Shown: piece after piece, positions 738 through 24,746 of the stretch
Layout: each line of letters opens with the position of its first letter
Position numbering within the stretch: the first letter of the stretch is position 1
Made by a program: the position numbers and the translations under genes
Assembly (NCBI GenBank): GCA_964601825.1
Contig: CAZROS010000001.1
Span: 1 to 25,758, forward strand
Origin: an uncultured archaeon
GTDB taxonomy: Archaea > Aenigmatarchaeota > Aenigmatarchaeia > Aenigmatarchaeales > JACQIB01
Length of the DNA: 25,758 nt
Reading direction: 5' to 3'
The notes under the pieces: model-generated
The model's database searches: none
Told to the model about the DNA's origin: nothing
The model's input: the letters and a program-made list of their open reading frames with translations, nothing else

Positions 738-2874
738 TTTTTCGCACGCGGATTAAAAAAGAATTTTTCCGGGGTTTCCTGCTGTAAAAAATAAATGCTG
801 CCGCCAGAATTCCTATGAGAGTTATTAGAGAGCCAGCATAATTAACAATAATGGGCGAGAAACTTATTTTTACATTTTCTGTTTTCGGAAAAATCAGCAT
901 GAATGACGGGCTCGCATAATAAATTTTTTCTCCGCCAGCGGACTGCCAATTCGGGAAATATGAAACTGAAATTATATGAGGCTTGCCTGGGCAGTTTGTT
1001 GCGAAAGAAATCTCTTCCTGCAAAAACTTCTCATTTGAAATCGCGCAATTATTTTCAATAGGAATTTTTCTAATCTCGCTCAAATCAAAAATCTCTGCCG
1101 CAAATTTTTCCTTGTCAAAAGCAGAAATTTCTTCATCCATCACAACTGGAAATTCCAGCAGAGAGTTATTCATCCACCATTCAAGCGACTGGACTTTTCT
1201 TTCTTCCTTTGAAATTTTCATAAAATTTGGCTGAAATGCAGGAACAGAAATATAACTTCCTGAAATAGAATTCAATTTAAAAACTTTCCACTCTTTGAAG
1301 TCTCCGATTTTTTCCCATTCGCTGCTGTTGCCCAAATCAGACTGCAGCCGGTCGAAAGTTGCTACTAGATATTTCACATTCAGCATTTTCAAATGCTTTG
1401 TCCCATCAGAAAAATTATATCCAGTTGTATGCTCCTTCCCTCCGATTGTTGGAATGCCTGCGCAGTGGTGCGAGATTTCGCATTGAGTGTAGGAAATAAA
1501 AGGAGAAGTTATTGTTGCCTGCGCATAAACCCCTTCCAGAGTGTTTCTGCCGGAAAAATATGGCATGGACTCAAAAGCGCGCGGCGTGCCAAACCTGTTG
1601 TTGATATCAGCCAAATCCACATACCCGCGGCCGTCTGTTCCCTTGAGCAGCTGATTAATTGAATTAAAAGTCTGCCAGTCTGCTTTTTTCTCCCAACCCT
1701 CATAATTCCATTTTATCCAGCCGGGAATGTAGCTCACGCTTGCGTATGTTGCGTAAAAAATTATTGCGCAGACAGCGATTGCCGAAAGCTGAAATAAAAA
1801 TCTCCGCCTAAACAGCCGCGGCAAAATATCTCCCAAAGCTGCAGCAGAAAGCATTAGCAGGAAAAAATATGTAAGCGGAACAAACCGCACATTCACATTG
1901 AACAAAAGCTCTCCGTTGAAAAATGCGAAAATTGTTGCCAGCGCGCAGAAGCCCAAAAATAAAATTTTTCTGTCTTTGTTTGCAAAGCCGCGCGCGAGCG
2001 CGTACACGCCAAGCAAAACAAAAATTATCGCTTCCTTCGGATACCACGCCTCAAGATTTATTCCCCAATCTCTTCCATATTTTGTTGTGTATTCAATATT
2101 GCTCAGAAGCGGAATTAGCCAGAAAGCAAGCAAAGAAAGCGCAAGTCCGAAAACTAAAAACAGGAATTTGAAATTCCGGAGAATTTCTTTTTTCTCTTTG
2201 CGCATAACAAAGAAAATAGCTGACAAGCCGCCTATTATTGCAGTAACCAAATGTGAAAAGAAAGTGAGAAAGTAAAGCGCTGGCAGCCAAAGAGAAAACT
2301 TTTTCTCTTCTGCTTTTTTGAAAAGGAACCCCAAAAACAAAATCATGAATCCCATGCTCAGCGCATAAGAGAATTCTCCAGCCAGATTGCTGGGAATGTT
2401 CCCGCCGAAAACATTGTTTTTTTCCTGAAAAAGAAAAATCAGCGAGAGCGCGGAAGAAATTATTGGTGTTGGAAATTTGAAGCCGAGCCAGCGCATTGTG
2501 ATATATGCTGAAACTGGAATTAGAAAATTCGGCAGAGCTGTGATAAGCTTGAACGCAATTGTAAGTGGAATTCCGATGTAAGAAAGCAATGACATGAAAA
2601 TATACGCAAGCGGAAAAATAAATTGAAAAATAGGATAGCCTGCCCATCTGCCCTGCGACCAGCCGAAAACTTCCCCTTTTGGAATTAGTTCGGTTGCCAT
2701 GAATTTTGCAAGATAATTATCCGAGCCTGTGTCCCCACCGGTTGTTGCTGTATTCAGAAGCAGGAGCTCGGGCTTGTAATAGAAAATCAAAAATCCGAAA
2801 ATCAAAATGAAAATCAGAATGTCTATATGCAATTCTTTTATTTCAGCTTTTTTCGTGCGCCTCATGGTTTCCAT
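727..2874 (-). CDS. Multi-pass membrane protein, PTPS-related/YfhO-like, predicted GT-C glycosyltransferase
   Basis: 715 aa, many TM segments, N-terminal GGDTGS loop, 'GWSQGRWAGYPIFQF', 'SNLAGEFSY', large extracellular C-terminal domain ending in one TM. Confidence 0.7.
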   Translation of the reverse strand: METMRRTKKAEIKELHIDILIFILIFGFLIFYYKPELLLLNTATTGGDTGSDNYLAKFMATELIPKGEVFGWSQGRWAGYPIFQFIFPLAYIFMSLLSYIGIPLTIAFKLITALPNFLIPVSAYITMRWLGFKFPTPIISSALSLIFLFQEKNNVFGGNIPSNLAGEFSYALSMGFMILFLGFLFKKAEEKKFSLWLPALYFLTFFSHLVTAIIGGLSAIFFVMRKEKKEILRNFKFLFLVFGLALSLLAFWLIPLLSNIEYTTKYGRDWGINLEAWYPKEAIIFVLLGVYALARGFANKDRKILFLGFCALATIFAFFNGELLFNVNVRFVPLTYFFLLMLSAAALGDILPRLFRRRFLFQLSAIAVCAIIFYATYASVSYIPGWIKWNYEGWEKKADWQTFNSINQLLKGTDGRGYVDLADINNRFGTPRAFESMPYFSGRNTLEGVYAQATITSPFISYTQCEISHHCAGIPTIGGKEHTTGYNFSDGTKHLKMLNVKYLVATFDRLQSDLGNSSEWEKIGDFKEWKVFKLNSISGSYISVPAFQPNFMKISKEERKVQSLEWWMNNSLLEFPVVMDEEISAFDKEKFAAEIFDLSEIRKIPIENNCAISNEKFLQEEISFATNCPGKPHIISVSYFPNWQSAGGEKIYYASPSFMLIFPKTENVKISFSPIIVNYAGSLITLIGILAAAFIFYSRKPRKNSFLIRVRKIEV

Positions 2875-6912: not shown

Positions 6913-9681
6913 ATGATTCCGCTATTGCAGAAAATTCTTGAAGCAAATCTATGCGACTCTTGTGTAGGCAGGCAGTTTGGCCAATTGCTTTCAGGCTACA
7001 CAAACGCAGAGCGCGGGAAATTTCTGCGCGCTTTTGCAGCAACAGCTGTTGACGGGAGAAAGCTCTCAACAGAAAAAATAAATCCAAATAATTTTTCTGG
7101 CTTTAAGTTCAGGCAGAACGCGGATTTTGAGAAAATTCTAATAGGGGTGCGGGGTGCGAAGCATCCTGCGTGTGAATTGTGTTATGGACTTTTTGATAAC
7201 TTGGACAAAACAGCAAAGCGCATCTCAAACTCCCTAAGCAAATATGAATTCTCAACTTTTGTTATTGGCACAAACCTCTCGCGCAAACTTTTGGATGCAG
7301 AAGAGAAATTGTGGGAGCGCTGCGGAATTGATTATTGCGAGCCCATGCGGGCTGAATTAAACAGAGAGCTGGGCAAGCGAGTTGAAAAAATTGCAGGAAA
7401 AAAAGCAGACTTGAAAAAACCTGACATTGCTGTTCTCTTGGACATGGAAGCGAACAAAGTTTGGCTGAATGTAAACCCGCTTTTTATTTTCGGCTATTAC
7501 CAAAAATTGCAGCGCGGATTCCCGCAATGCAAATGGGGCACGCCTCACAAATACAAAACTTCTGTTGAGGAGCAAGTGGGTTTGCCTGCTTTAAAATTAA
7601 CTTTAGGAAGAGACCACAAATTTCACGGATGTGTCGCTGGAGATACGAAAATCCTACTCAACGAATGTTCGCTTCCAATCAGAGAGTTAGAAAATTCCTA
7701 CAGCAAACATGAAGCAATGTCTTTTGACGAGAAAGAGAAAAAAATAGTTGCATCAGATATAAAAGATTTCATGAAAATGAAAGCCGTCATATATAAAGTT
7801 AAAACAAAAGAAACCGGAAGAGATATACTTGTTACAAATGAGCATCCGTTCTTTACATCCGAAGGGATGAAGCCGCTTGCGAACTTAAAAATGGGCGAGC
7901 TTGTCGCTGTTAATCCTTTAGAGCCCGCCACATATTCTGAATTTAAAGGAAAAATAATTTCAGATGAAAAAGAAATTAATTTAGTTATAGAGAAATATGC
8001 GCCGACTTCTTTCAAATCTAAAATAATCAAAGAGCTGAAAGAAAGAAAATTGCTGCCGCTTTTTGCTGATAGCCCCTCTGCTTTGATTCTTGCGAGAATC
8101 GCGGCATTTCTGTTTGGAGATGGAAATGTAAGATATACAAGAAAAAGAGATGTTGGAATAGAGTTTTATGGTGAAGTTGTTGACTTGAGAGAAATACAAA
8201 AAGATTTAGAAAAATTGGGATTTAAGTCTGAACTTTATAAGAGAAATTTGAGAACATCAATTATAAAAGATTATTATGGAAACGAAAAAATAATAGAACC
8301 CAAAAAAGAGCAGAGAGTTTTGGTTTGCTATTCTAAAAGCTTGTGGGCTTTGCTTGTAGCATTGGGCGTGCCTGTGGGAAATAAAGTTGTAAACGAATTT
8401 AAAATACCAGATTGGATAAAAGAGTCAGACTCATTCAAGAGAGAATTTCTCGCTTCTTTATTTGCTTGCGAGATGGACGTTCCAAGATTAGACAAAAGAA
8501 ATTACAACAGAAAGAGCTTTAACACTCCCAGATTTTCTCTGAACAAAATAGAAAGCAAAGTCAATAACATGGTTGCATTTATGGAAGATATAAAAGAAAT
8601 TCTTTCGGAGTTTGGAATAAGAACTCTCAAATTAAGGCTTCTGCCTTACACTACAAGAAAAGATGGAAATAAATCTATAAAGGTAATACTGGACTTCAAT
8701 AACAGTTTTGAAAATCTGATAAATTTATACAACAAAATAAACTTCAGGTACTGCAGGCAGAAAGAAATTCGCTCTAAACATGTACTGGAATATCTGCTCA
8801 TGAAAAAATATTTTGTTGATAAGCGCAAAGAGCTTTACAAAAAAGCTTTGGAATTAAAGAAAGATGGAATGAAATTATCTGAAATTCATAGAAAGCTGAA
8901 TAGCGATCATGTTAGTAAAAAAGACTTGTGGCTGTGGGTTAGTGGCAATATAAAAAATAGAAATATAAAAGTTCGGAATAATTTCCCAAGTTTTGATGAT
9001 TGGCTCAAAAAACATTCAGAGGGACTTGCTTATGGGTTGATTTGGGAAACAATAGAATCTGTAGAAAAGGTTGGTGAAGATTTCGTTTATGATTTGACCA
9101 TTCCAAGAAATCATAATTTCTTTGCCAACGGCTTTTTGGTTTCAAACTCCGGCCGCGAGGATATTGATGCACGTTGCCTTGCCTGGCGGCCGTTTGTTTT
9201 GGAGATTGCAAAGCCGCGGCTGCGCAAAATTGATTTAAAGAGATTAGAAAAAACAATTTCAAAATCAAAAAAAATAAAAGTCCGCGGATTGAAATTTTCC
9301 AATATGGAAACTGTCCGCGAAATTAAAGCAGCAGCTGTTGACAAAACTTACAGAGCGCTCGTTCAATTGAAAAAATCCATTAGCAAAAAAGATTTGAAAA
9401 AACTTTCTGCTTTGCGCGGAACAATTTCCCAGCGCACTCCTGAAAGAGTTTTGCACAGGCGCGCGGATTTACATAGAAAGCGCGAGGTTATTTCAATAAA
9501 AGCAAAATTAAAAAATAAAAAAACTTTGGAGCTTGTGATAAAGGGGAGCGCAGGGCTTTACATCAAGGAATTAATTTCCGGAGACAATGGCAGGACGCGC
9601 CCGAGCGTTTCAGAAGTTCTTGGGACAGAAGCGAAGTGCAAGGAATTAGATGTTGTAAATATAGGAAAGATAAAACTTTAG
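6913..9681 (+). CDS. pus10: tRNA pseudouridine 54/55 synthase Pus10 precursor containing an intein (416 aa after splicing)
   Basis: N-terminal LCDSCVGRQF and CELC Zn ligands, THUMP region 'AELNRELGKR', catalytic 'FHG|SGREDIDARCL', C-terminal 'SQRTPERVLHRRAD' and 'AGLYIKELISGDNGRTRPS'. Confidence 0.95.
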   Translation: MIPLLQKILEANLCDSCVGRQFGQLLSGYTNAERGKFLRAFAATAVDGRKLSTEKINPNNFSGFKFRQNADFEKILIGVRGAKHPACELCYGLFDNLDKTAKRISNSLSKYEFSTFVIGTNLSRKLLDAEEKLWERCGIDYCEPMRAELNRELGKRVEKIAGKKADLKKPDIAVLLDMEANKVWLNVNPLFIFGYYQKLQRGFPQCKWGTPHKYKTSVEEQVGLPALKLTLGRDHKFHGCVAGDTKILLNECSLPIRELENSYSKHEAMSFDEKEKKIVASDIKDFMKMKAVIYKVKTKETGRDILVTNEHPFFTSEGMKPLANLKMGELVAVNPLEPATYSEFKGKIISDEKEINLVIEKYAPTSFKSKIIKELKERKLLPLFADSPSALILARIAAFLFGDGNVRYTRKRDVGIEFYGEVVDLREIQKDLEKLGFKSELYKRNLRTSIIKDYYGNEKIIEPKKEQRVLVCYSKSLWALLVALGVPVGNKVVNEFKIPDWIKESDSFKREFLASLFACEMDVPRLDKRNYNRKSFNTPRFSLNKIESKVNNMVAFMEDIKEILSEFGIRTLKLRLLPYTTRKDGNKSIKVILDFNNSFENLINLYNKINFRYCRQKEIRSKHVLEYLLMKKYFVDKRKELYKKALELKKDGMKLSEIHRKLNSDHVSKKDLWLWVSGNIKNRNIKVRNNFPSFDDWLKKHSEGLAYGLIWETIESVEKVGEDFVYDLTIPRNHNFFANGFLVSNSGREDIDARCLAWRPFVLEIAKPRLRKIDLKRLEKTISKSKKIKVRGLKFSNMETVREIKAAAVDKTYRALVQLKKSISKKDLKKLSALRGTISQRTPERVLHRRADLHRKREVISIKAKLKNKKTLELVIKGSAGLYIKELISGDNGRTRPSVSEVLGTEAKCKELDVVNIGKIKL
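7630..9147 (+). mobile_element. Intein with LAGLIDADG homing endonuclease (506 aa)
   Basis: Starts CVAGDTKILL, block B VTNEHPFF, endonuclease motifs ARIAAFLFGDG and FLASLFACE, block F/G VYDLTIPRNHNFFANGFLVSN, followed by Ser+1. Confidence 0.95.
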
Positions 9682-9737
9682 TCACTAGTAGTCACAAAGG
9701 TTTATATCGCACTTCATTCCTTTCTTTTCAGATTCGT

Positions 9738-10880
9738 ATGGATTTATCTGTTATAGAAAATGATTTTAAAACAGTTCTCAGCCAGAAAAGGCTTTTAGAC
9801 CATCTGAGAACACAGTACAATGGCTGCACTTTGGTTTATGCAAAAAGGCATGGAAGCCAATGGAGGGCTGGAAATGTTGTTCTAGAAATTGGAATAGAAA
9901 GTGGCAGCGGCACGCGGAAAAGAGAAATTATAAAATACTATAACGACCCAGCTTATGATGCAGTAAGCGACCCGCAACAAAAAGAATATTTACAGAGATG
10001 CTACAAGGGAAATGAAATAAGGCAGCAACTGAGATTATCCACACATTACCCAAAAATGTTTCCGAGAGTTTTATGCGATGATGACAGGGCTGTGCTTATG
10101 GAATTCAAGGAAGGCGAAAGCGCTTTAGAAGTTTTCAAATCTGGTAAAGAAGATTCGAGAGATAAGGCTGCAAGATTTTCAAGGCTCGCTCCTCAAAGGC
10201 TTCAAGAAATGTTTTCAACATATCCTAAATCTGATGCGCCTAATTCACATTGCTTGGAAGATGTTTCGCGGACAATTTTTTACCATACAGAAAGGCTGCG
10301 CAATGACAGCAGATTTAATTTGCCGGAAGAAGAGTTTAGAAGAATTGTAGATCTAACAAGAGAGTGGAGCCTAAAACTTTCGAAAAGATATGTTGGCCAG
10401 CCAATTCATGGAGATTTGAATGCTGATAATTTGAGAATTACAGAAAGCGGCGAGCTTTCCCTGATAGACCCGAAAGATGATTCTAGCAACAGCATTGTAA
10501 AAGATTTCGGCAGGTATGTGCCGTCATTTTTAGTTAACTGCTTCGATTACAGTGGTTGGGGTGTTGATTTCGCAGCCGCGCGAGCTAAGGAAATGATAAA
10601 GAGTTTGAACTTAACAAAAGAGGAAGTTGCAAGATTGAGATTTTTCTCTGGCCAGTCAATGCTTTCGTTTTCTTATTATGGAACTCAAAAAGATGGAAAA
10701 GATAACAGCGGAAATCCAAAAAGAAACGGCCCGCTTTCGCAAACATACAGAAGGCATTCTATAAGAACTTTGAGTGATTTGGAAGCTGCTGGCAAGGAGG
10801 ATGTGGACACGTTTGCAGAATCTTTTGCTGGAACTTTTGTGGAAGAAGCACAAAAATATCAAGCTGTTGCAGGTGTTTGA
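9738..10880 (+). CDS. Aminoglycoside phosphotransferase/choline kinase-like protein
   Basis: IHGDLNADN catalytic loop and LIDP motif. The ATG at 9738 avoids the overlap with pus10 implied by the track start 9636. Confidence 0.75.
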   Translation: MDLSVIENDFKTVLSQKRLLDHLRTQYNGCTLVYAKRHGSQWRAGNVVLEIGIESGSGTRKREIIKYYNDPAYDAVSDPQQKEYLQRCYKGNEIRQQLRLSTHYPKMFPRVLCDDDRAVLMEFKEGESALEVFKSGKEDSRDKAARFSRLAPQRLQEMFSTYPKSDAPNSHCLEDVSRTIFYHTERLRNDSRFNLPEEEFRRIVDLTREWSLKLSKRYVGQPIHGDLNADNLRITESGELSLIDPKDDSSNSIVKDFGRYVPSFLVNCFDYSGWGVDFAAARAKEMIKSLNLTKEEVARLRFFSGQSMLSFSYYGTQKDGKDNSGNPKRNGPLSQTYRRHSIRTLSDLEAAGKEDVDTFAESFAGTFVEEAQKYQAVAGV

Positions 10881-11413: not shown

Positions 11414-11623
11414 ATGCAAGTCAATGTTACAGGAGGCAAGAATTTCTATTCTTTCAGAATACGCGAAGAGGATTGCAGGCTTGAAGTTATAGCAGATAAA
11501 AAAGGCAGACATATACGCTATTTGAGAAATAATGTAGCTTATTGGGGAGGAGACATAAGACCTGAAGAGAATGAAGCAGAATCCCTGAGAAATGCTCTCA
11601 ATAATAAGCTGAGGGAAGGATGA
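11414..11623 (+). CDS. Hypothetical protein (69 aa), possibly truncated
   Basis: Co-oriented ORF filling the gap; no recognised family. Confidence 0.45.
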   Translation: MQVNVTGGKNFYSFRIREEDCRLEVIADKKGRHIRYLRNNVAYWGGDIRPEENEAESLRNALNNKLREG

Positions 11624-11649
11624 GAAGCAAGCCACGCACTTACAGGAGA

Positions 11650-11811
11650 TTATGGAGTTTCAACAACTTTTTCAAATGCGGCTCTTTCAAGCGGAGTCCT
11701 TGGCTCGGTTCTCGTATAAAAAGCTATAATACCCTTTACAATATCCGGGGAAATCTCCGGTGTTTTAATTAGAGTGTCATCCAAATCCAATGCTAGGAAA
11801 GTTTCTGGCAT
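11650..11811 (-). pseudogene. Inverted 5' fragment of a HAD-family hydrolase
   Basis: MPETFLALDLDDTLIKT (HAD motif I DxDxT), TTTTAAAG box 28 nt upstream, stops after 53 aa at an inverted-repeat junction. Confidence 0.7.
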
Positions 11812-11886
11812 AAAAACATCTGTAACTAAATCTTTAAAAGAGTTTATTTTGAACAGCTTCTTTTTTAATTTGAATTTCAACACCAT

Positions 11887-12363
11887 CTCCACATTCTGAT
11901 GTTAGAGATATTGATGCAGCTTATGAGCACATGATGGCTGACAGGACAATAAAATCCCGCACAGAAGTTATGAAAAAAGAAGGAATTTACGAAACAGTTT
12001 ATTTGAATGCGAACAGATTTTTCGATCCAACTCCTTATAGATTAGAGCTTGCTCCGCGCGGGCTTGTTATAAGAAATACCGGATTTGCGGGGCTTTTTCG
12101 ATGATATTGTAACTGCAGATGAGATCGGAATCAAGCTCGGTACAGGGGCTTTTGAATTTTTGAAAGATAAATGCGGCGGAAGAATTGTTTATGTTGATGA
12201 CAATCCTGATTACATTCAGGTGGGAAGACAGAAAGGTTTGGAAAGCTATCACACACGCGAGTTCGCTCGCAAGGCTTATGAAGATGGATGTAAATCGATG
12301 AGTCTGCCTTGTATCGGAGGTTTGCAGGAAATCAGACATGTGGCTTCTCTATCTGGGCAATAG
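11887..12363 (+). pseudogene. 3' part of the same HAD hydrolase, frameshifted near 12084
   Basis: Open frame ...HSDVRDIDAAYEHMM...RNTG, then a +1 shift to LRGFFDDIVTADEIGIK...IVYVDDNPDYIQVGRQKG (HAD motifs III/IV). No motif I on this strand. Confidence 0.7.
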
Positions 12364-12964
12364 CAGATGATAAATCGTAAACTTTTTCTATGTACGCATC
12401 AGCTTCTTTGGATTCAGAACCAACCAAAATTCCTTTCAGCCCCTTTAATTTTGCTGGCAGAATATCTTTCTTCAAGCTATCTCCAACCATTGCAGCATTT
12501 TCAGGCTTAAAGCCCATCTCATCCAGAATTATATCAAAAATTTTTGTGTTCGGCTTTGATTTTTCAAAATATTCCGCCCCGTAGATTTTTTTGAAAAAAC
12601 TTTCTATTTTTAGAATTTTTAAAATCCTTTCCGCAACATCTGTCGGGCTGTTTGAAGCAATAACCAGAGTGTTGTTTTTGGAAATATTTTCAATAACTTC
12701 ATAAAGTTTTTCATCATATTTCAAATGCTTTTCAATATTGGATTTTCTCAGGATTTCAAACATATCTTTTCTTTGCAATCCGAGAGAGAGTAAAACTTGG
12801 GTGCGGCTGTCGAGCTCTTTCAGCTTTTCTTCCATAATTTCTTTAGCTCTATCTTCAGAAACCTTCTGATTTTCAGCAATTTTTCTTATAATCATTTCAT
12901 CTCTTTCTTTCCACAGGCTTTCAGAAAAATACAGGGTTTTGTCCAAGTCAAAAATTATCAGCAT
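12332..12964 (-). CDS. HAD-superfamily hydrolase (nucleotidase-like)
   Basis: MLIIFDLDKTL, ASNS, KPN, MVGDSLKKDI: all four HAD motifs. Start moved to ATG 12964. Confidence 0.88.
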   Translation of the reverse strand: MLIIFDLDKTLYFSESLWKERDEMIIRKIAENQKVSEDRAKEIMEEKLKELDSRTQVLLSLGLQRKDMFEILRKSNIEKHLKYDEKLYEVIENISKNNTLVIASNSPTDVAERILKILKIESFFKKIYGAEYFEKSKPNTKIFDIILDEMGFKPENAAMVGDSLKKDILPAKLKGLKGILVGSESKEADAYIEKVYDLSSAIAQIEKPHV

Positions 12965-12973
12965 GGAAAACAT

Positions 12974-13000
12974 TTGTATAAAAGATTTAAATACGTATTG
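12974..13000. promoter_or_regulatory. Bidirectional AT-rich promoter between the HAD and dCMP deaminase genes
   Basis: TATAAAAG and TTTAAATA elements in the 48-bp gap between divergent ATGs. Confidence 0.45.
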
Positions 13001-13012
13001 TGTAATAGATAT

Positions 13013-13498
13013 ATGCAAAAAGCAATTATCAGGCCGCCGTGGGATGAGTATTTCATGAATATTGCTCACGCAGTTAAAGCCCGCTCAAATTGCATTAAGA
13101 GGCAAGTTGGCGCAGTTATTGCAAAAGACAATAGAATTATTTCTACCGGCTATAATGGAACCCCCAGAAAAATAAAAAATTGCAACGAGGGCGGCTGCGA
13201 GCGCTGCAATTCAAACACTCCATCTGGAAAAGATTTGGATAAATGCATTTGCTCGCATGCTGAAGAAAATGCAATAACTCAGGCAGCGCTTCATGGAGTC
13301 AGGCTTGAGGGAGCGCAAGTTTACACAACTTTCACTCCATGCACAGCCTGCACAAAATTAATACTTGGCGCAGGAATTTCTAAAGTTGTAGCTGCAGAAA
13401 ATTATCCAGACAAAAGAGGCATGGCGCTTTTGAAAGAAGCCAAAATAGAGTTTGAATTTCTTGACACAACGCGCCAGAAATCTTTTAGGGAATTTTAG
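13013..13498 (+). CDS. dCMP deaminase
   Basis: RPPWDEYFM, STGYNG, HAEENAI and PCTAC Zn motifs. Start moved to ATG 13013, sharing a divergent promoter with the HAD gene. Confidence 0.93.
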   Translation: MQKAIIRPPWDEYFMNIAHAVKARSNCIKRQVGAVIAKDNRIISTGYNGTPRKIKNCNEGGCERCNSNTPSGKDLDKCICSHAEENAITQAALHGVRLEGAQVYTTFTPCTACTKLILGAGISKVVAAENYPDKRGMALLKEAKIEFEFLDTTRQKSFREF

Positions 13499-13983
13499 TA
13501 TTTTCCGACATCAATCCCAACATCTCTTGGGCCAAAAGCCATAGGCAACAATTCGCTTATTTTCACTATGTAAACTAAAGTTTTATCTGTGTTTGACATC
13601 ACAACTTCTGTATCCACTCCAGAAACTTGTGAAACTTCATAAATAGCCTGCCTGCACATTCCGCAAGGAGTTACAGGCTTATCTAATTTATTTTTTCCTT
13701 TTCCAATAACAGCTATTGCTTTTATTTTTCTTTTCCCATGTGAGCCGGCGTGATAAAGTGTTGTCTGCTCTGCGTGGGAAGTATTGCTGTATGCCGCGTT
13801 TTCAAAATTCGCTCCGCCGAAAATTTCTCCATCGATTGTCATAGCTGCTGCGCCAACAGAAAATCTAGAATATGGATTGTAAGGATTTTCATTCATTTGC
13901 TTTTCCGCTTCATCTAGCAATCTCTTATATTCATCAGAAAGCTTATCGTAGCTTACCTCTTCAATTGTAGCTTTAATTTCCAT
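13495..13983 (-). CDS. cdd: Cytidine deaminase
   Basis: PYSRFSVGAA, GANFENAAY, HAEQ, PCGMCRQ, ELLPMAF. Confidence 0.93.
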   Translation of the reverse strand: MEIKATIEEVSYDKLSDEYKRLLDEAEKQMNENPYNPYSRFSVGAAAMTIDGEIFGGANFENAAYSNTSHAEQTTLYHAGSHGKRKIKAIAVIGKGKNKLDKPVTPCGMCRQAIYEVSQVSGVDTEVVMSNTDKTLVYIVKISELLPMAFGPRDVGIDVGKY

Positions 13984-19362: not shown

Positions 19363-20616
19363 CTATTCTTCAACTTCCAGCGGAATCTCTTCTGCCTCAT
19401 GCCCAAGCATTTTCAGGAAATCCGGAGTTCCCATTTCTGTTTTTCCTCCGGAATATGGCAGCCTTTTTTCAAGCTCTGCCCGGAACTTCGGGTCTGTTCC
19501 GGCCATCTCAACAAGCTTGTTAATCAGATGCGGGAACATTTTTCCAATCTTCTGCAGGCGGTAGCTTGCCTTAACTTCATCGCTGATAATTTTCCACAAT
19601 TCTGTGTCGTATTTTTTCAAAAAGTTTTCAGAGAAATCATTTTTCTGCAGGGCTTCAGCAACAACTTGCGCGGCAACTCTTCCGGAAATCATTGCATTGC
19701 CAACTCCCTCGCCGCTTAAGGGATCAATCAGACTCGCTGCATCTCCTAAAAGCAAAAATCCATTTCCGTAGCATTTTTTGTGGTAGCTCGCAACCGGCAA
19801 ATTCCAAGCAAGAATTTGTCCCTGCAATTTTGAATTTTTGAATCTCTCTTTGAAAAGCGGATTCTCTGCAATAACTTTATTTTGAGCTTCCACCAAATTT
19901 ACACTTTTCTCAACTTTGTCTTTAACAATCATTCCGAGCCCGACATTTGCTTCTCCGTTTTCTAGAGGGAAAACCCAGAAATATCCTGGGATCAAATCTT
20001 TTATCATGTGAATTTCTATTCTATCATTCAAGCCAGTTACGCCTGTATAATATCCGCGCGTTGCAACAATAAAATGCTCGGAAGGATTTTTGTTCAATCC
20101 AAATTTTCTCGCGACAATGCTGTTCGCGCCATCGCATCCCAAAACTAATTTTGCGCGCAAAGTTTCATCTTGGCTGTTTTCATTTTTTCCTACAAGACCT
20201 GCGACTGCTCCATTCTCTACAAGAACATCCATCACATTGAAAACCCTGAACTTAACTTTGAAAGTTTTTGTCGCTGACTCGAAAAGATAATTGTCAAAAA
20301 TCTGGCGCTTGTGGCAGTAGCCCGGGGCAGGATTTTTTCTGTCCTCCACATCAAGATCAACAACTTTCCCGTTTGGGCTGCTGATTACAATTCCATAAAT
20401 TTTCTGTCCCGGAAGTTTTGTGTAGCCCTCGTAAATCCCAAGCTCTTTCAGAATTGCAGCAGCCTTTCTTCCCTGCGCATCTCCACAGATTTTGTCGCGC
20501 GGGAAAGCTGCTTTGTCAATTAGCAAAATATTTTTTCCTGCTTTTGCCAAATACATTGCTGCGATTGCTCCTGCTGGGCCTGCGCCGACAATTATTGCGT
20601 CAAAAGTTTCTGGCAT
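19363..20616 (-). CDS. Geranylgeranyl reductase family FAD-dependent oxidoreductase
   Basis: VGAGPAG, FPRDKICGD, GCDGANS, GYFWVFP, GDAASLIDPLSGEGVGNAM. Confidence 0.9.
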   Translation of the reverse strand: MPETFDAIIVGAGPAGAIAAMYLAKAGKNILLIDKAAFPRDKICGDAQGRKAAAILKELGIYEGYTKLPGQKIYGIVISSPNGKVVDLDVEDRKNPAPGYCHKRQIFDNYLFESATKTFKVKFRVFNVMDVLVENGAVAGLVGKNENSQDETLRAKLVLGCDGANSIVARKFGLNKNPSEHFIVATRGYYTGVTGLNDRIEIHMIKDLIPGYFWVFPLENGEANVGLGMIVKDKVEKSVNLVEAQNKVIAENPLFKERFKNSKLQGQILAWNLPVASYHKKCYGNGFLLLGDAASLIDPLSGEGVGNAMISGRVAAQVVAEALQKNDFSENFLKKYDTELWKIISDEVKASYRLQKIGKMFPHLINKLVEMAGTDPKFRAELEKRLPYSGGKTEMGTPDFLKMLGHEAEEIPLEVEE

Positions 20617-20676
20617 AAAAATCAGTTTGTTAATAGAAATTAAGGAATGTGAAGGTTTATAAAATTTAGTCTCGCC

Positions 20677-20787
20677 TTATTTCACTTCAATTGTTGCTTC
20701 AAATTTGTTGTTGCCTCTTGTAGAATCTGCTTCTCTTAAAGCATTTTCAGGGTCAGCCTCAATTTTGATTTTATAGACTCCTTGCAT
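20677..20787 (-). pseudogene. Orphan C-terminal half of a CARDB-type domain
   Basis: MQGVYKIKIEADPENALREADSTRGNNKFEATIEVK* fits the CARDB pattern GxYxIxxxxDPxNxIxExxxxNN. Overlaps the end of the 354-aa ORF in another frame. Confidence 0.6.
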
Positions 20788-21800
20788 TTTCCTTCTTCTA
20801 CTTCTTCAAGCATTTTTTGAATTTCTCTATCGCAGGTAGTTTTACAATTCCAAAGTTCAGGACCTGTTGAGAAACCGACATCAAAGAACATAATAAAAAT
20901 ATTTGCCCCAACACCTCCCCGAAGTCCGCTTTCACCAACAATTTTCCCGGTTCTTATCCTATTTCCCACTTCTTCAGCTATTCTCTGACTACCAGACTTA
21001 GGATGGAGCCCTCTCTTTGTATTGAATTCAACCTGAACTCTCCTTAGTTCCATTTCTCTCTCTAACATTGTTAGAGACTTTCCGGTTATTCTTTTTTGCC
21101 ATTCATCAACTATCGCTACAGCATCCTTTTTACTGAAAGGGGCGGATGATTCGTGTAAAGGCTTTCGAATCTCTTCTACACCATCAAATTTTAGAGATTT
21201 TTTCAAGGATTCTGAAAATTCAGTAACACCCGGATCGGATCTAAATTTGTATTTCACAAGAGCGGTTCTTCCAACCGTAACACCTCTAGGGTCGTCTAAA
21301 CCCGAGCTTATCGCATGCGTTGAAGCTTCTGCTTTTACATTAATTTTTTCATGCGTTCCAGCCAAAAATTTTGCCTGGGCTCCTGCTATTTCGGTCGGAG
21401 TTGCAGATTCTGTAACGAAAATTGTACCTTTCTTGATTAATTTATCTTTCTCAAATATTGGGGGGTCTTCATGTAAACCAAGTGGAGCAGAAGATTGTCG
21501 TGCGGTCCCGAAAACAACTGTGGGTGAAGATGATTGAGCATATGGATCTTTTTGTGTTCTCTCCTCATCATGTGGTGTATTAGTTTCTCCAAACAAACAT
21601 CTGTTCATACAATCTCTAGATAAATCTCCTGCAGTTAGGCTAGAGAATTCCACAGAAGCTTTTTTTACACCGTAGCCGATCGGATCGCACAATTGCGGAA
21701 TATTATAACACGGATTTGCAGCAACAGTTGCAGCTAGAGAAACTGTTGAAAGTAAAGAAAAGTAAATAGAAAATAAAATAATGGGAGTCTGGATTCGCAT
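20736..21800 (-). CDS. Secreted Cys-containing hypothetical protein (354 aa)
   Basis: Hydrophobic signal peptide ending in 'SLAA', Cys pairs at both ends, motifs shared with the two upstream ORFs. Confidence 0.7.
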   Translation of the reverse strand: MRIQTPIILFSIYFSLLSTVSLAATVAANPCYNIPQLCDPIGYGVKKASVEFSSLTAGDLSRDCMNRCLFGETNTPHDEERTQKDPYAQSSSPTVVFGTARQSSAPLGLHEDPPIFEKDKLIKKGTIFVTESATPTEIAGAQAKFLAGTHEKINVKAEASTHAISSGLDDPRGVTVGRTALVKYKFRSDPGVTEFSESLKKSLKFDGVEEIRKPLHESSAPFSKKDAVAIVDEWQKRITGKSLTMLEREMELRRVQVEFNTKRGLHPKSGSQRIAEEVGNRIRTGKIVGESGLRGGVGANIFIMFFDVGFSTGPELWNCKTTCDREIQKMLEEVEEGKCKESIKSKLRLTLKML

Positions 21801-21902
21801 AAGTTAGATACTTTTTAAGGATTTATAAATATCCATTCTGCATCGGCTGGCTGTCATAACACTTATTTTTGAATGCTTCACAAACTTCATGAATTTGGAT
21901 AT

Positions 21903-22565
21903 CTATGTCCTCTCTATAATAAGAGCTGTTCTCTTCTCAATGCCATCTGAACCAACGTGAACTTCAACTGCAGCTTCTGTTTCGGCACTAACAAGTTTGT
22001 ATCCTTCAGTCTGAAGTTTAACAGCTTTTTGTTGGTCGGCCGGCGTGGCAGATTGCGTTATAAAAACTTTGCGGGCTGTGGGGTCTTCCCAGATTCCCAG
22101 TCTCTCGAAATAAAGCATCTCTCTTTCGGGGTCCTGCCCAGTCAAAAAACAAGCAAGCATATCAAAATCTTGTGGAAGTTGTGAATAAACTTGTTTTAAT
22201 AAATTTTTATATTTTCTCCAAAATAATGCGTCGTTAAAATCTGATGCCTCAGAATCTTCTGGATAATTAACGATAAGTAAAATATCTGTGTCAACCTCAC
22301 CGCCAGGTGATATTTGAAAGCCCCTATCAGTTTTTTTAAATCGCATTTTTTGAATTTCTCCATCGGGCTTCTCATATCTTACTTCTTCAGAAGTTAAAGG
22401 TTTGTAGTTTGGAAAGTGTTCCACCCATTTGCCGAGCGCAGTGTCGCAAAAATTCATTAAAAATATTTCCTTTTGTGTATTTCCTTCAAGATAAGGACCG
22501 ACATCTCTCGGATTATAGAAAGCATGGGCAATTCTGCGCGGCCTAAATATTGGGACCCCCGACAT
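21903..22565 (-). CDS. Hypothetical cytoplasmic protein (220 aa) sharing a domain with the 354-aa protein
   Basis: TTTAAATA box about 30 nt upstream. C-terminal LGIWEDP / FITQSATP / RTALI motifs. Confidence 0.7.
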   Translation of the reverse strand: MSGVPIFRPRRIAHAFYNPRDVGPYLEGNTQKEIFLMNFCDTALGKWVEHFPNYKPLTSEEVRYEKPDGEIQKMRFKKTDRGFQISPGGEVDTDILLIVNYPEDSEASDFNDALFWRKYKNLLKQVYSQLPQDFDMLACFLTGQDPEREMLYFERLGIWEDPTARKVFITQSATPADQQKAVKLQTEGYKLVSAETEAAVEVHVGSDGIEKRTALIIERT

Positions 22566-22631
22566 ATAAGTAGTTATTGTTTTAAGTATTTAAATCTTCT
22601 CAGGCATCCACAGAAGTTACAGGAGAAATTG

Positions 22632-22762
22632 TTAGAAATCAAAAAATACAGCTTTTGCTGTTGCAGAGAGAACAGGAGCAGAAAGCAAAATTATAAAAAT
22701 AAGAAAAGAAATTGATAATGTACTGCACAATGCTCTAAAGTAGATTGGGAATTGTCTTCCAT
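22632..22762 (-). pseudogene. Frameshifted, truncated signal-peptide relic paralogous to the 80-aa ORF
   Basis: After a 1-nt shift following ATG 22762 it reads GRQFPIYFRALCSTLSISFLIFIILLSAPVLSATAKAVFFDF*. Confidence 0.65.
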
Positions 22763-22978
22763 ATTGTTACTATAGATCTTAAACTTTATAAATCTTATGG
22801 AACACCCCCATTCCATCTTTTTCCATATCTTCGGGTGTGTAAGTTTTTCCAACAGCGCATCTCTCCACGCACCTGTCATCTCCGGCTAGAGTTTCTTTCA
22901 AACCTTTTTGTGCTTCTCCCCAGAAATCATAAAATACAGCTTTTGCTGTTGCAGAGAGAACAGGAGCAGAAAGCAAAA
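22634..22978. repeat. 57-bp direct repeat (22634-22690 and 22922-22978)
   Basis: 56/57 identical, 288 bp apart, encoding LLSAPVLSATAKAVF(Y/F)DF on the minus strand. Confidence 0.95.
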
Positions 22979-23021
22979 GCGTGAAAATCAGAAGCGAAAT
23001 AAATATTGCGGATTGTTTCAT
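22779..23021 (-). CDS. Short secreted protein or truncated paralog of the 354-aa protein
   Basis: Signal peptide plus AGDDRCVERCAVGKTYTPEDME motif. Confidence 0.6.
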   Translation of the reverse strand: MKQSAIFISLLIFTLLLSAPVLSATAKAVFYDFWGEAQKGLKETLAGDDRCVERCAVGKTYTPEDMEKDGMGVFHKIYKV

Positions 23022-23089
23022 GTTAAAGTTTTCTTATTGCATATTTAAAATTCACTTCACAAATTGAGATTTTAGGGTTTATAAATTTT

Positions 23090-24496
23090 CTACGGAGTCA
23101 GCCTTTCAGGAGTTCGTGGGAAAAGAATTGCCTCCTGCACATTTCCCAATTCAAGAATTTGCTGAACAATTCTGTCAATCCCTGTTCCAGAGCCTCCGTG
23201 CGGCGGCATTCCATACCTGAAAGAATCTAAATAAAATTTTATTTTTTCTGTTGTAACTTTTTGGGCGCGCGCCTGCTCCATCAATTTCCAATAGCGGTGC
23301 TCGCGCTGAGCTGCTGTTGAGATTTCCAAACCTTTGTAAATCAAATCGCAGCGCTCGGCAACGCTGGGATTTTTTTCTGATTGCTTGTGGTAGAACTTCG
23401 CGAGCTTCCATGGGAATTCTGTGAGAAAAACAAAATCGCTTCCGAATTTTTCTTTTGCAATTTCTCCAAGAGCTTTTTCTCCCGTAGAATCCAATTCATC
23501 ATCTTCTCCATATTTCATCCCGCGCTCTTTCAGCAAAAGTTTTTTAGCCTCTGCCATTGCAATTCTTGGAAAAGGAATTTTTGGAATTTCAATTTTCTTT
23601 CCGAGAATTTTTAATTCTTCTGCGCCGCTTTCTGAAACGTGCTTGCAGACAGCCCGCATCATTTCCTCCATTGTGCGCATAACATCCTCCAAAGAATTTA
23701 TGAAAGCCATTTCAATATCCAGCATAATTATTTCTGTAACGTGCCTTGTGGTGTGGGATTTTTCCGCGCGAAAAGCTGGAGCGATTTCATAAACCCGGTC
23801 AAAGCCCGAGGCCATCATCATTTGCTTGTAGAACTGCGGGCTCTGCGCAAGGAAAGCTTCGCGCTCAAAATAAGTTACAGCAAAAACTTCACTGCCTCCC
23901 TCGCTTGCTTCTGCAATAATTTTCGGTGAGTGGATTTCAATAAAATTATTTCCTTCCAGATAATTTCTCACAGCAGTTGTTACCATATCCTTTACTTTAA
24001 AAATCGCAGCAACCTCTGGCTTGCGCAAATCAATAAAGCGCGCCCCTAATCGCGTTTCAAATTCAGCCGGAGTTTTTTTTGTTATTGGCTCCAATGGGAG
24101 CTGGGCTTCGCTTTCGTTTATAATTTTTATTTCAGCAGGAATTATTTCAAATCCATTTGGAGCGGATTTGTTTGCGCGGACTGTTCCTTTAACTCCAATT
24201 ACCCACTCTCTGCCAACTTTCTCAATTTTTTCCAGCAGTTCGTTTTTTACTTCGCCTTCTTTGAAAAGAATTTGCGCTTTTCCCTCTCTGTCAGCTAACT
24301 GGATAAATTTTAATTTTCCCAAATCCCTCAGCTCGCGCACCCAGCCCATGAGAACAACTTGCTTGCCATTCATCTCAGGAGAAATTTCCGCAGAATAATG
24401 CGTGCGCTGCCAGTCGCCGATTCCGTCAAAGATAGAAATTTCAGTTGCGGGGATTTTTTTCTTTTCCACAGAGACTTTTGTTTTGCGAATTGCCAT
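23090..24496 (-). CDS. aspS: Aspartyl-tRNA synthetase, archaeal type, probably non-discriminating
   Basis: OB-fold GWVRELRDLG, LAQSPQFYKQ, FRAEKSHTTRH, PPHGGSGTGIDR, LFPRTPERLTP. Pro in the anticodon loop 'KSAPNGFEI'. Confidence 0.95.
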   Translation of the reverse strand: MAIRKTKVSVEKKKIPATEISIFDGIGDWQRTHYSAEISPEMNGKQVVLMGWVRELRDLGKLKFIQLADREGKAQILFKEGEVKNELLEKIEKVGREWVIGVKGTVRANKSAPNGFEIIPAEIKIINESEAQLPLEPITKKTPAEFETRLGARFIDLRKPEVAAIFKVKDMVTTAVRNYLEGNNFIEIHSPKIIAEASEGGSEVFAVTYFEREAFLAQSPQFYKQMMMASGFDRVYEIAPAFRAEKSHTTRHVTEIIMLDIEMAFINSLEDVMRTMEEMMRAVCKHVSESGAEELKILGKKIEIPKIPFPRIAMAEAKKLLLKERGMKYGEDDELDSTGEKALGEIAKEKFGSDFVFLTEFPWKLAKFYHKQSEKNPSVAERCDLIYKGLEISTAAQREHRYWKLMEQARAQKVTTEKIKFYLDSFRYGMPPHGGSGTGIDRIVQQILELGNVQEAILFPRTPERLTP

Positions 24497-24533: not shown

Positions 24534-24746
24534 TTAGAGTATTACAAAATATTTTTCTCTTCTAGTTGTGCAAGGCTCTCTTTGACCTTCAACTCTATGG
24601 CCATAAACACCGGAGCCGTCAGGATTTCTTGCAAAAAGCATAGCATCACATCCGTGTTGTAGACATGGAACTTGTTTAATCTCTAAATAACATAATGTCA
24701 TATCGCCCTGCTGGGCTAACACAAAACCATCTTCTTTACATGCCAT
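24534..24746 (-). CDS. Small Cys-containing hypothetical protein
   Basis: 70-aa ORF with five Cys, co-oriented between the EMC6-like gene and aspS. Confidence 0.4.
   Translation of the reverse strand: MACKEDGFVLAQQGDMTLCYLEIKQVPCLQHGCDAMLFARNPDGSGVYGHRVEGQREPCTTRREKYFVIL

Follow-up and report, generated by a model that had tools for sequence, protein, structure and literature searches.

How could a small group of genes without recognisable relatives arise between two conserved housekeeping genes of an archaeon, and what might it do there? The question is raised by one 25,758-nucleotide stretch of contig CAZROS010000001.1 (assembly GCA_964601825.1) from an uncultured archaeon, referred to below as the window. 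Three open reading frames (ORFs), named C80, B220 and A354 after their lengths in residues, occupy an islet of ∼2.4 kb between aspS, the gene of aspartyl-tRNA synthetase (AspRS), and a geranylgeranyl-reductase-type gene (GGR). As an earlier note on this DNA had described, the three ORFs are co-oriented, and its coordinates for them, all on the minus strand, were reproduced. Our analysis indicates that this is probably a strain-specific 'dark-matter' islet, which encodes one cytoplasmic and two Sec-exported proteins and arose in place through duplication, divergence and short-tract recombination. The note had proposed a locally shuffled cluster of paralogues; one old duplication, one cassette repeat and one 23-nt patch agree with it. 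The patch, together with the absence of the islet from the nearest relatives, goes beyond what the note contained.

Shared modules of the islet proteins

A354 (20736..21800, minus strand) is a predicted exported protein of 354 residues, as judged from its ORF, hydropathy and Cys positions. From the N-terminus, it consists of one signal peptide, the Cys-containing module A (21558-21611), one Ser/Pro linker, module B (∼21261-21482) and the C-terminal half, which contains three more Cys residues and is largely helical in a low-confidence model. C80 (22779..23021, minus strand), a predicted exported peptide of 80 residues, combines a signal peptide with module A (CVERCAVGKTYTPEDME, 22818-22871). 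B220 (21903..22565, minus strand; 220 residues) is without a signal peptide; its unique N-terminal 155 residues are followed by module B (residues 156-220, 21906-22100).

Module A is of 18 aligned residues, CMNRCLFGETNTPHDEER in A354 and CVERCAVGKTYTPEDMEK in C80, and both proteins follow the pattern CxxRCxxGxTxTPxDxE. BLASTP aligned them with 26 bits (E 6e-5), and none of 2000 composition-preserving shuffles reached the observed score (z 7.2). Module B, residues 107-179 of A354 and 156-220 of B220, also gave 26 bits (E 6e-4); its z value is 5.8, with 1 of 2000 such shuffles reaching the score. BLASTP detected no similarity between B220 and C80. Since a spurious match of B220 to a nucleotidyltransferase looked equally good in pairwise comparison (z 7.6), the two pairs were also ranked against an empirical null made of all 276 pairs among the 24 proteins of the window. 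A354/C80 and A354/B220 took the first and second places (z 6.75 and 5.59, respectively); the next pair reached 3.47, and the 99th percentile is 3.41. Both module assignments of the earlier note are thus upheld by the ranking, the shuffles and BLASTP. The all-versus-all alignment with shuffled controls that it had suggested gave significant values for both pairs. Non-significant similarity, or homologues forming one invariant known housekeeping family, would have spoken against its view; the similarities proved significant and no such family was found.

In the two modules, identity is highest at the second codon position (0.83 and 1.0) and near random at the third (0.56 and 0.45), which points to old protein-level homology and not to recent DNA copying. 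The models of A354 and B220, both of low confidence, agree over module B, which is of β-β-α-β-β order in each; as single-sequence AlphaFold2 predictions with predicted local distance difference test (pLDDT) scores of 41.9 and 48.5, they are too poor for further use. Judged from these sequence comparisons, the shared modules A and B are real, though short.

Like A354, C80 has one single N-terminal hydrophobic segment; each ends in an Ala-rich cleavage-type motif (SLA/A in A354 and LSA/T in C80, cleavage at the slash). Hydropathy analysis found no hydrophobic segment in B220. The claim of the earlier note that A354 is secreted and B220 is not therefore agrees with the predicted signal peptides, which C80 has as well. 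C80, B220 and A354 each have a TATA-type box, or one closely resembling it, upstream; these promoter-like boxes are in line with the TATA boxes that the note had given to each gene. Another of its claims, a CARDB tail flanking the genes, was not substantiated: the segment is 42 open codons (20677-20805) that overlap the 3' end of A354 in another frame, and it has no Pfam match.

With the coding log-likelihood ratio (LLR) table, which was built from the neighbouring housekeeping genes, C80, B220 and A354 scored 0.34, 0.22 and 0.15, respectively, and the signal was confined to their own frame 0; the score of A354 is the lowest among the long ORFs. The guanine-cytosine (GC) content of the islet is 0.39-0.40, compared to 0.34-0.45 in its neighbours, and its codon usage is host-like. 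An assembly chimera could be ruled out, as contigs from two other sequencing runs match at 100% across both junctions. One contig of run SRR12113383 is 100% identical to positions 19906-22139 (A354 with the adjoining end of B220 and start of GGR), and one contig of run SRR12113430 is 100% identical to 22670-24055 (aspS and C80) and breaks inside the repeat described below. The independent contig L076 is 100% identical over A354, and L077 is 100% identical over C80.

Younger repeats within the islet

In addition to the old modules, the islet contains two younger DNA repeats. A second copy of the C80 promoter box, leader and entire signal peptide lies 288-293 bp downstream; the copies are 87% identical over 87 nt, with a 57-nt core of 98%, and the similarity ends abruptly past the codons for ...AKAVF(Y/F)DF. 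The second copy is a relic of the C80 cassette (22634..22796, minus strand), in which the box occupies 22782-22794 and the copied signal peptide 22634-22720. Its translation, ...LSISFLIFIILLSAPVLSATAKAVFFDF, runs into a stop 8 codons beyond the cleavage site; the relic has no ATG and is in frame with the ATG of B220, with three stops between. The earlier note had correctly recognised a signal-peptide relic at 22634-22720, but its placement at the flank was wrong; the relic sits inside the islet, between C80 and B220. The leader of A354 is weakly similar to the C80 cassette.

The second repeat is one 23-nt tract, 22/23 identical, that is shared by the C-terminal part of A354 (20810..20832, minus strand; DREIQKM) and the N-terminal part of B220 (22343..22365, minus strand; DGEIQKM). 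It was found by repeat comparison and blastn (E 2e-4), and it is in frame in both genes (D[RG]EIQKM). In 500 codon-shuffled controls, the longest tract was 18 and none reached 23. By its sequence, the patch is best read as a recent short-tract transfer. Together, the cassette repeat and the patch suggest recent exchange or copying of short tracts on top of the old duplication.

Two further details of the cassette repeat are recorded here. The repeat holds one small hairpin, ACAGC-AAAA-GCTGT (22648-22661 and 22936-22949, minus strand). The sole base difference in the 57-nt core changes TTTTAT of the C80 copy to TTTTTT in the relic copy, and this T6 run is ∼125 nt past the C80 stop; from its sequence, the relic might serve as a terminator of C80. 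The tandem-repeat and simple-repeat scan was empty, and no meaningful inverted repeats were found.

The gene order C80 to B220 matches the module order A to B within A354. This collinearity could also be expected if C80, the relic and B220 were what remains of a decaying duplicate of an A354-like gene, with at least some of the ORFs no longer functional. The missing ATG and early stop of the relic and its three stops before B220 fit such debris, as do the lack of a signal peptide in B220, whose module is extracellular in A354, the singleton status of all three proteins and the low coding score of A354. Against it, ORFs of 354 and 220 codons are intact in a genome of 39% GC and carry a frame-specific coding signal, each ORF is preceded, at a fitting distance, by a promoter-type box, and conserved second with randomised third codon positions indicate past selection on the protein. 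Decay is plausible for the relic and conceivable for C80 and B220; for the islet as a whole, we regard it as unlikely.

The aspS-GGR junction in relatives

The AspRS relatives place the organism in the DPANN archaea, and those of 67% identity are labelled Aenigmatarchaeota. AspRS of the window is 89-90% identical, and GGR 86-88% identical, to those of three relatives, L001, L045 and L046. In L001 (the same sequence as L045; AspRS 89%, GGR 86%), GGR starts 31 bp past aspS, and only one box, AAAATTTATAAACCTT, stands between the two genes. Nucleotide homology of the window to L001/L045 stops at 23076 and resumes at 20639; for L046, it resumes at 20667. At the same junction, L046 (AspRS 90%, GGR 88%) contains an unrelated orphan of 174 residues (L046 1484-2008, plus strand). 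This orphan was found on 9 contigs from several samples (including L078-L083), always in the order aspS-174-GGR, and belongs to no family. In L047, right after the aspS stop, there is one ORF of 170 residues (2362-2874, minus strand) that its close relative L002 (4405-4443) lacks; on sequence grounds, the aspS 3' flank underwent a second, independent indel here.

Relatives of ∼67% AspRS identity carry a conserved 2x[4Fe-4S] ferredoxin of 56-57 residues in the interval (L052, L053, L055, L057, L058 and L060). The clade of the window is without this interval ferredoxin; the GGR-type gene of the ∼67% relatives is only ∼30% identical to that of the window, and the intervals of L048 and L005 also hold one desaturase-like gene of 440-458 residues. 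Neither the occupants in L046 and L047 nor the ORFs in or around the interval of L002, L054 and L005 are related to the islet proteins; the only related pair among the compared interval ORFs is L047_168 and L002_160, which are orthologs located downstream of the site. An origin of the islet DNA from the ferredoxin or desaturase genes or other DNA of the relatives was rejected, as there was no signal in any frame.

The interval comparison thus bears out the word island in the earlier note, since the islet is missing from the closest relatives. Because its occupants differ and are unrelated, the aspS 3' flank is a recurrent gene-turnover spot in the clade. That one site has been found in three distinct states favours turnover. 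Only the small membrane protein, aspS and GGR are syntenic with the nearest relatives, and the genomes are otherwise rearranged.

The same junction might have received the 2.4 kb ready-made from some unsampled virus, plasmid or archaeon, integrated at the aspS 3' end, with the 13-nt boxes as attachment sites or target duplications. The left-edge box, AAATTTATAAACC (23076..23088, minus strand), precedes C80 and is the counterpart of, and an exact match to, the lone aspS/GGR box of L001; the right-edge box, AATTTTATAAACC (20654..20666, minus strand), has one mismatch and is the GGR promoter. These are the two best copies in the window, of 13 nt each, and they sit exactly at the islet edges. Import would also suit the position of the inserts, which begin at most 15 nt past the end of aspS in the window and right at its stop codon in L046 and L047 and whose cargo differs between the three, and islet DNA that has no counterpart in the relatives. 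However, the box is a general promoter consensus here, present upstream of genes in 9 copies against 2.5 expected, and it is palindromic, so it is weak evidence for, and was not read as, an attachment site. In the window, no integrase or mobility gene and no tRNA was found; codon usage and GC content are host-like, and viral contigs and phage records were searched without a match. Apart from the site specificity, nothing speaks positively for import of a ready-made block, and we consider it quite improbable.

Searches for homologues

In word-indexed searches of 5.8 billion clusters, A354, B220 and C80 each matched only themselves. A354, which bears both modules, also matched only itself in one exhaustive HMMER pass over 1.84 billion representatives. 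None of the three proteins has a match in Pfam, NCBIfam, PHROGs, PADLOC or the PDB sequences, two-sequence profiles of the modules retrieved nothing from PDB, and viral contigs and phage records gave no match to the islet. One degenerate DNA scan for the module A motif matched contigs of the same organism only. Foldseek with the B220 model found no match at E <= 0.001, with TM-scores <0.2. All family searches being empty, modules A and B remain unassigned, as the earlier note had them.

For the N-terminal part of B220, assignment as a minimal nucleotidyltransferase (MNT) of Pol-β fold was considered and rejected. The pairwise match to the MNT of L032 was 31.6 bits (z 7.6), but it is the best of ∼15,000 segments; in the profile tests, Pfam and the hidden Markov model search found nothing, the hhalign probability was 3.9%, and the GS...DxD motif fell in a gap. 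L032 itself, from a metagenome-assembled genome (MAG) of Nanoarchaeota, encodes one Pol-β-type nucleotidyltransferase after aspS (11424-12361, plus strand; Pfam Polbeta, 1e-12), and the adjoining ORF of 142 residues appears HEPN-like on reading its sequence. MNT-HEPN pairing in housekeeping context has been noted for DPANN (PMC6393860), which the L032 pair matches.

These searches also bear on the effector analogy, under which A354 would be a secreted effector or toxin, B220 its cytoplasmic immunity protein, partner or donor cassette, and C80 with the relic spare N-terminal cassettes for recombinational switching. A354 and C80 do share a signal peptide and an N-terminal module and differ downstream, the recently exchanged tracts show recombination among the genes, and the locus is strain-specific; conflict genes are moreover reported as over-represented in archaeal dark-matter islands (PMC6393860). 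Against this, no toxin, immunity or trafficking domain was detected in Pfam, NCBIfam, PADLOC or PHROGs, and no PDB sequence matched. Only housekeeping GGR follows A354, and the protein without signal peptide, B220, lies upstream instead. B220 shares one module with A354, unlike an immunity protein, and the role that the earlier note had offered for it (partner, immunity factor or donor cassette) is pure conjecture. The note had also suggested a search of DPANN MAGs for module A with varied downstream domains; no homologues were found in the cluster or HMMER searches, hence no polymorphic family. The analogy that the note had drawn is not supported, and we consider an effector locus very improbable.

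Origin and possible role of the islet

Taken together, these observations favour assembly of the islet in place. The islet would have grown as segments were duplicated one after another, diverged fast and recombined over short tracts, possibly from one single ancestor gene of signal peptide-A-B order, which is suggested by the C80 to B220 order mirroring A to B in A354. The products may be dispensable, fast-evolving proteins, two of which would reach, by export, the cell surface or the medium, the place of contact between an ectosymbiont-type archaeon and its host and competitors. If the aspS 3' flank tolerates insertion and turnover, the islet would need no mobility machinery of its own.

Several points weigh against assembly in place and an exported role. 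Modules A and B align over only 18 and ∼65 residues, each at 26 bits, and the structure models, with pLDDT scores of 42 and 48, cannot be relied upon. The nearest relatives share only ∼84% DNA identity across aspS, so the timing of the event, and gain versus loss, cannot be polarised; in-place origin and import of a ready-made block are also indistinguishable. B220 carries the 'extracellular' module and yet is without a signal peptide, which a surface-protein reading leaves unexplained. There are no homologues, and the role is deduced solely from the signal peptides and general knowledge of these archaea.

In a more specific version, the islet would show a reduced-genome archaeon in the act of making new exported proteins: one portable cassette of promoter, leader and signal peptide, together with small modules, would have been copied by short-tract recombination onto neighbouring sequence at a post-aspS hotspot, whose orphans differ between sister lineages, and the resulting proteins would serve as a strain-specific set of surface proteins or effectors in contact with host or competitors; we find this version rather unlikely.

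DPANN archaea rely on contact with other cells, and much of their gene content is made up of unexplained orphans. Their genomes are unusually rich in islands of unannotated genes (PMC6393860). The present locus is small, with clear module sharing, layered duplications and three alleles at one junction, and it could serve as a model for the origin and turnover of orphan genes. If the exported products proved to act on host cells, this would point to strain-level specificity factors. As it stands, the contribution is two unassigned protein modules and one documented variable spot, not a new mechanism.

Other features of the window

The conserved left flank, aspS (23090..24496, minus strand), matches Pfam tRNA-synt_2 (2.4e-86) and contains one OB anticodon domain. 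The conserved right flank, GGR (19363..20616, minus strand), encodes a flavin adenine dinucleotide (FAD) oxidoreductase of geranylgeranyl-reductase type (Pfam FAD_binding_3, 9.5e-22; GGR_cat, 7e-7). The remainder of the window is ordinary chromosome, with genes for SRP54, Pus10, one RNA methyltransferase, kinases, one HAD hydrolase, one deaminase and NAD kinase. The tRNA scan and the Rfam/non-coding RNA scan of the window were empty. Integrase, transposase and reverse transcriptase were not detected by the Pfam scans, which covered the ORFs of at least 100 residues, the islet proteins and two small neighbours.

One Cys-rich ORF of 70 residues (24534-24746, minus strand; LLR 0.03, no family) separates aspS from the conserved small membrane protein and is probably not a gene. 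The 922-residue ORF at 6913-9681 (plus strand) is an archaeal Pus10 pseudouridine synthase (THUMP, Pus10_C) split by one intein (residues ∼249-745; Intein_splicing, 3e-18), which contains a LAGLIDADG homing-endonuclease domain. The ORF of 414 residues at 9636-10880 (plus strand) has no significant Pfam match and is only weakly kinase-like (APH, E 0.018). Outside the window, L003, an Aenigmatarchaeota-related MAG, encodes a second, divergent AspRS-like protein (34% identity) at 12677-13903 (minus strand), ∼1.3 kb downstream of aspS and on the opposite strand.

Comparison with known systems

Like classical genomic islands and integrative elements, the islet is present or absent at one fixed junction by the 3' end of a conserved gene, and short direct repeats accompany it. 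Different from them, it is only 2.4 kb in size, it is without integrase, tRNA target and compositional deviation, and its repeats are the local promoter consensus. It also differs from the target of a diversity-generating retroelement, as no reverse transcriptase is present in the window, the repeat differences are not adenine-specific and the repeat lies in the signal peptide.

The vlp and vsp loci of Mycoplasma, a host-associated organism of reduced genome, are clusters of co-oriented genes with near-identical promoter, leader and signal-peptide cassettes and divergent mature regions. C80 and the relic share one such cassette (57 nt at 98%, box conserved). Different from vlp/vsp, the cassette stands before a live gene in C80 but not in the relic, and the signal peptide of A354 is only weakly similar; the islet has no lipobox (there is no Cys at the predicted cleavage sites), no mature-region repeats and no homopolymer or invertible switch.

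In polymorphic toxin loci of contact-dependent inhibition (CDI)/Rhs type, an exported protein has a conserved N-terminal and a differing C-terminal part, partial copies lie nearby, and the copies recombine. A354 and C80 likewise share the N-terminal part and differ C-terminally, with partial copies in the vicinity and signs of recombination. Compared to CDI/Rhs-type loci, the partial copies of the islet lie upstream and carry N-terminal, not C-terminal, parts; the islet lacks a toxin or immunity domain, an immunity gene downstream and a cross-strain family.

Compared to the archaeal dark-matter islands described by Makarova, Wolf and Koonin, which are enriched in genes of integrated elements and defence (PMC6393860), the islet has no such genes; it consists of only 3 genes, all singletons, and it shows internal paralogy and fresh repeat tracts. 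The resemblance lies in the general build: in those islands, as in the islet, short unannotated genes of narrow distribution stand amid housekeeping genes, some of them with signal peptides, and by its features the islet belongs to this class (PMC6393860).

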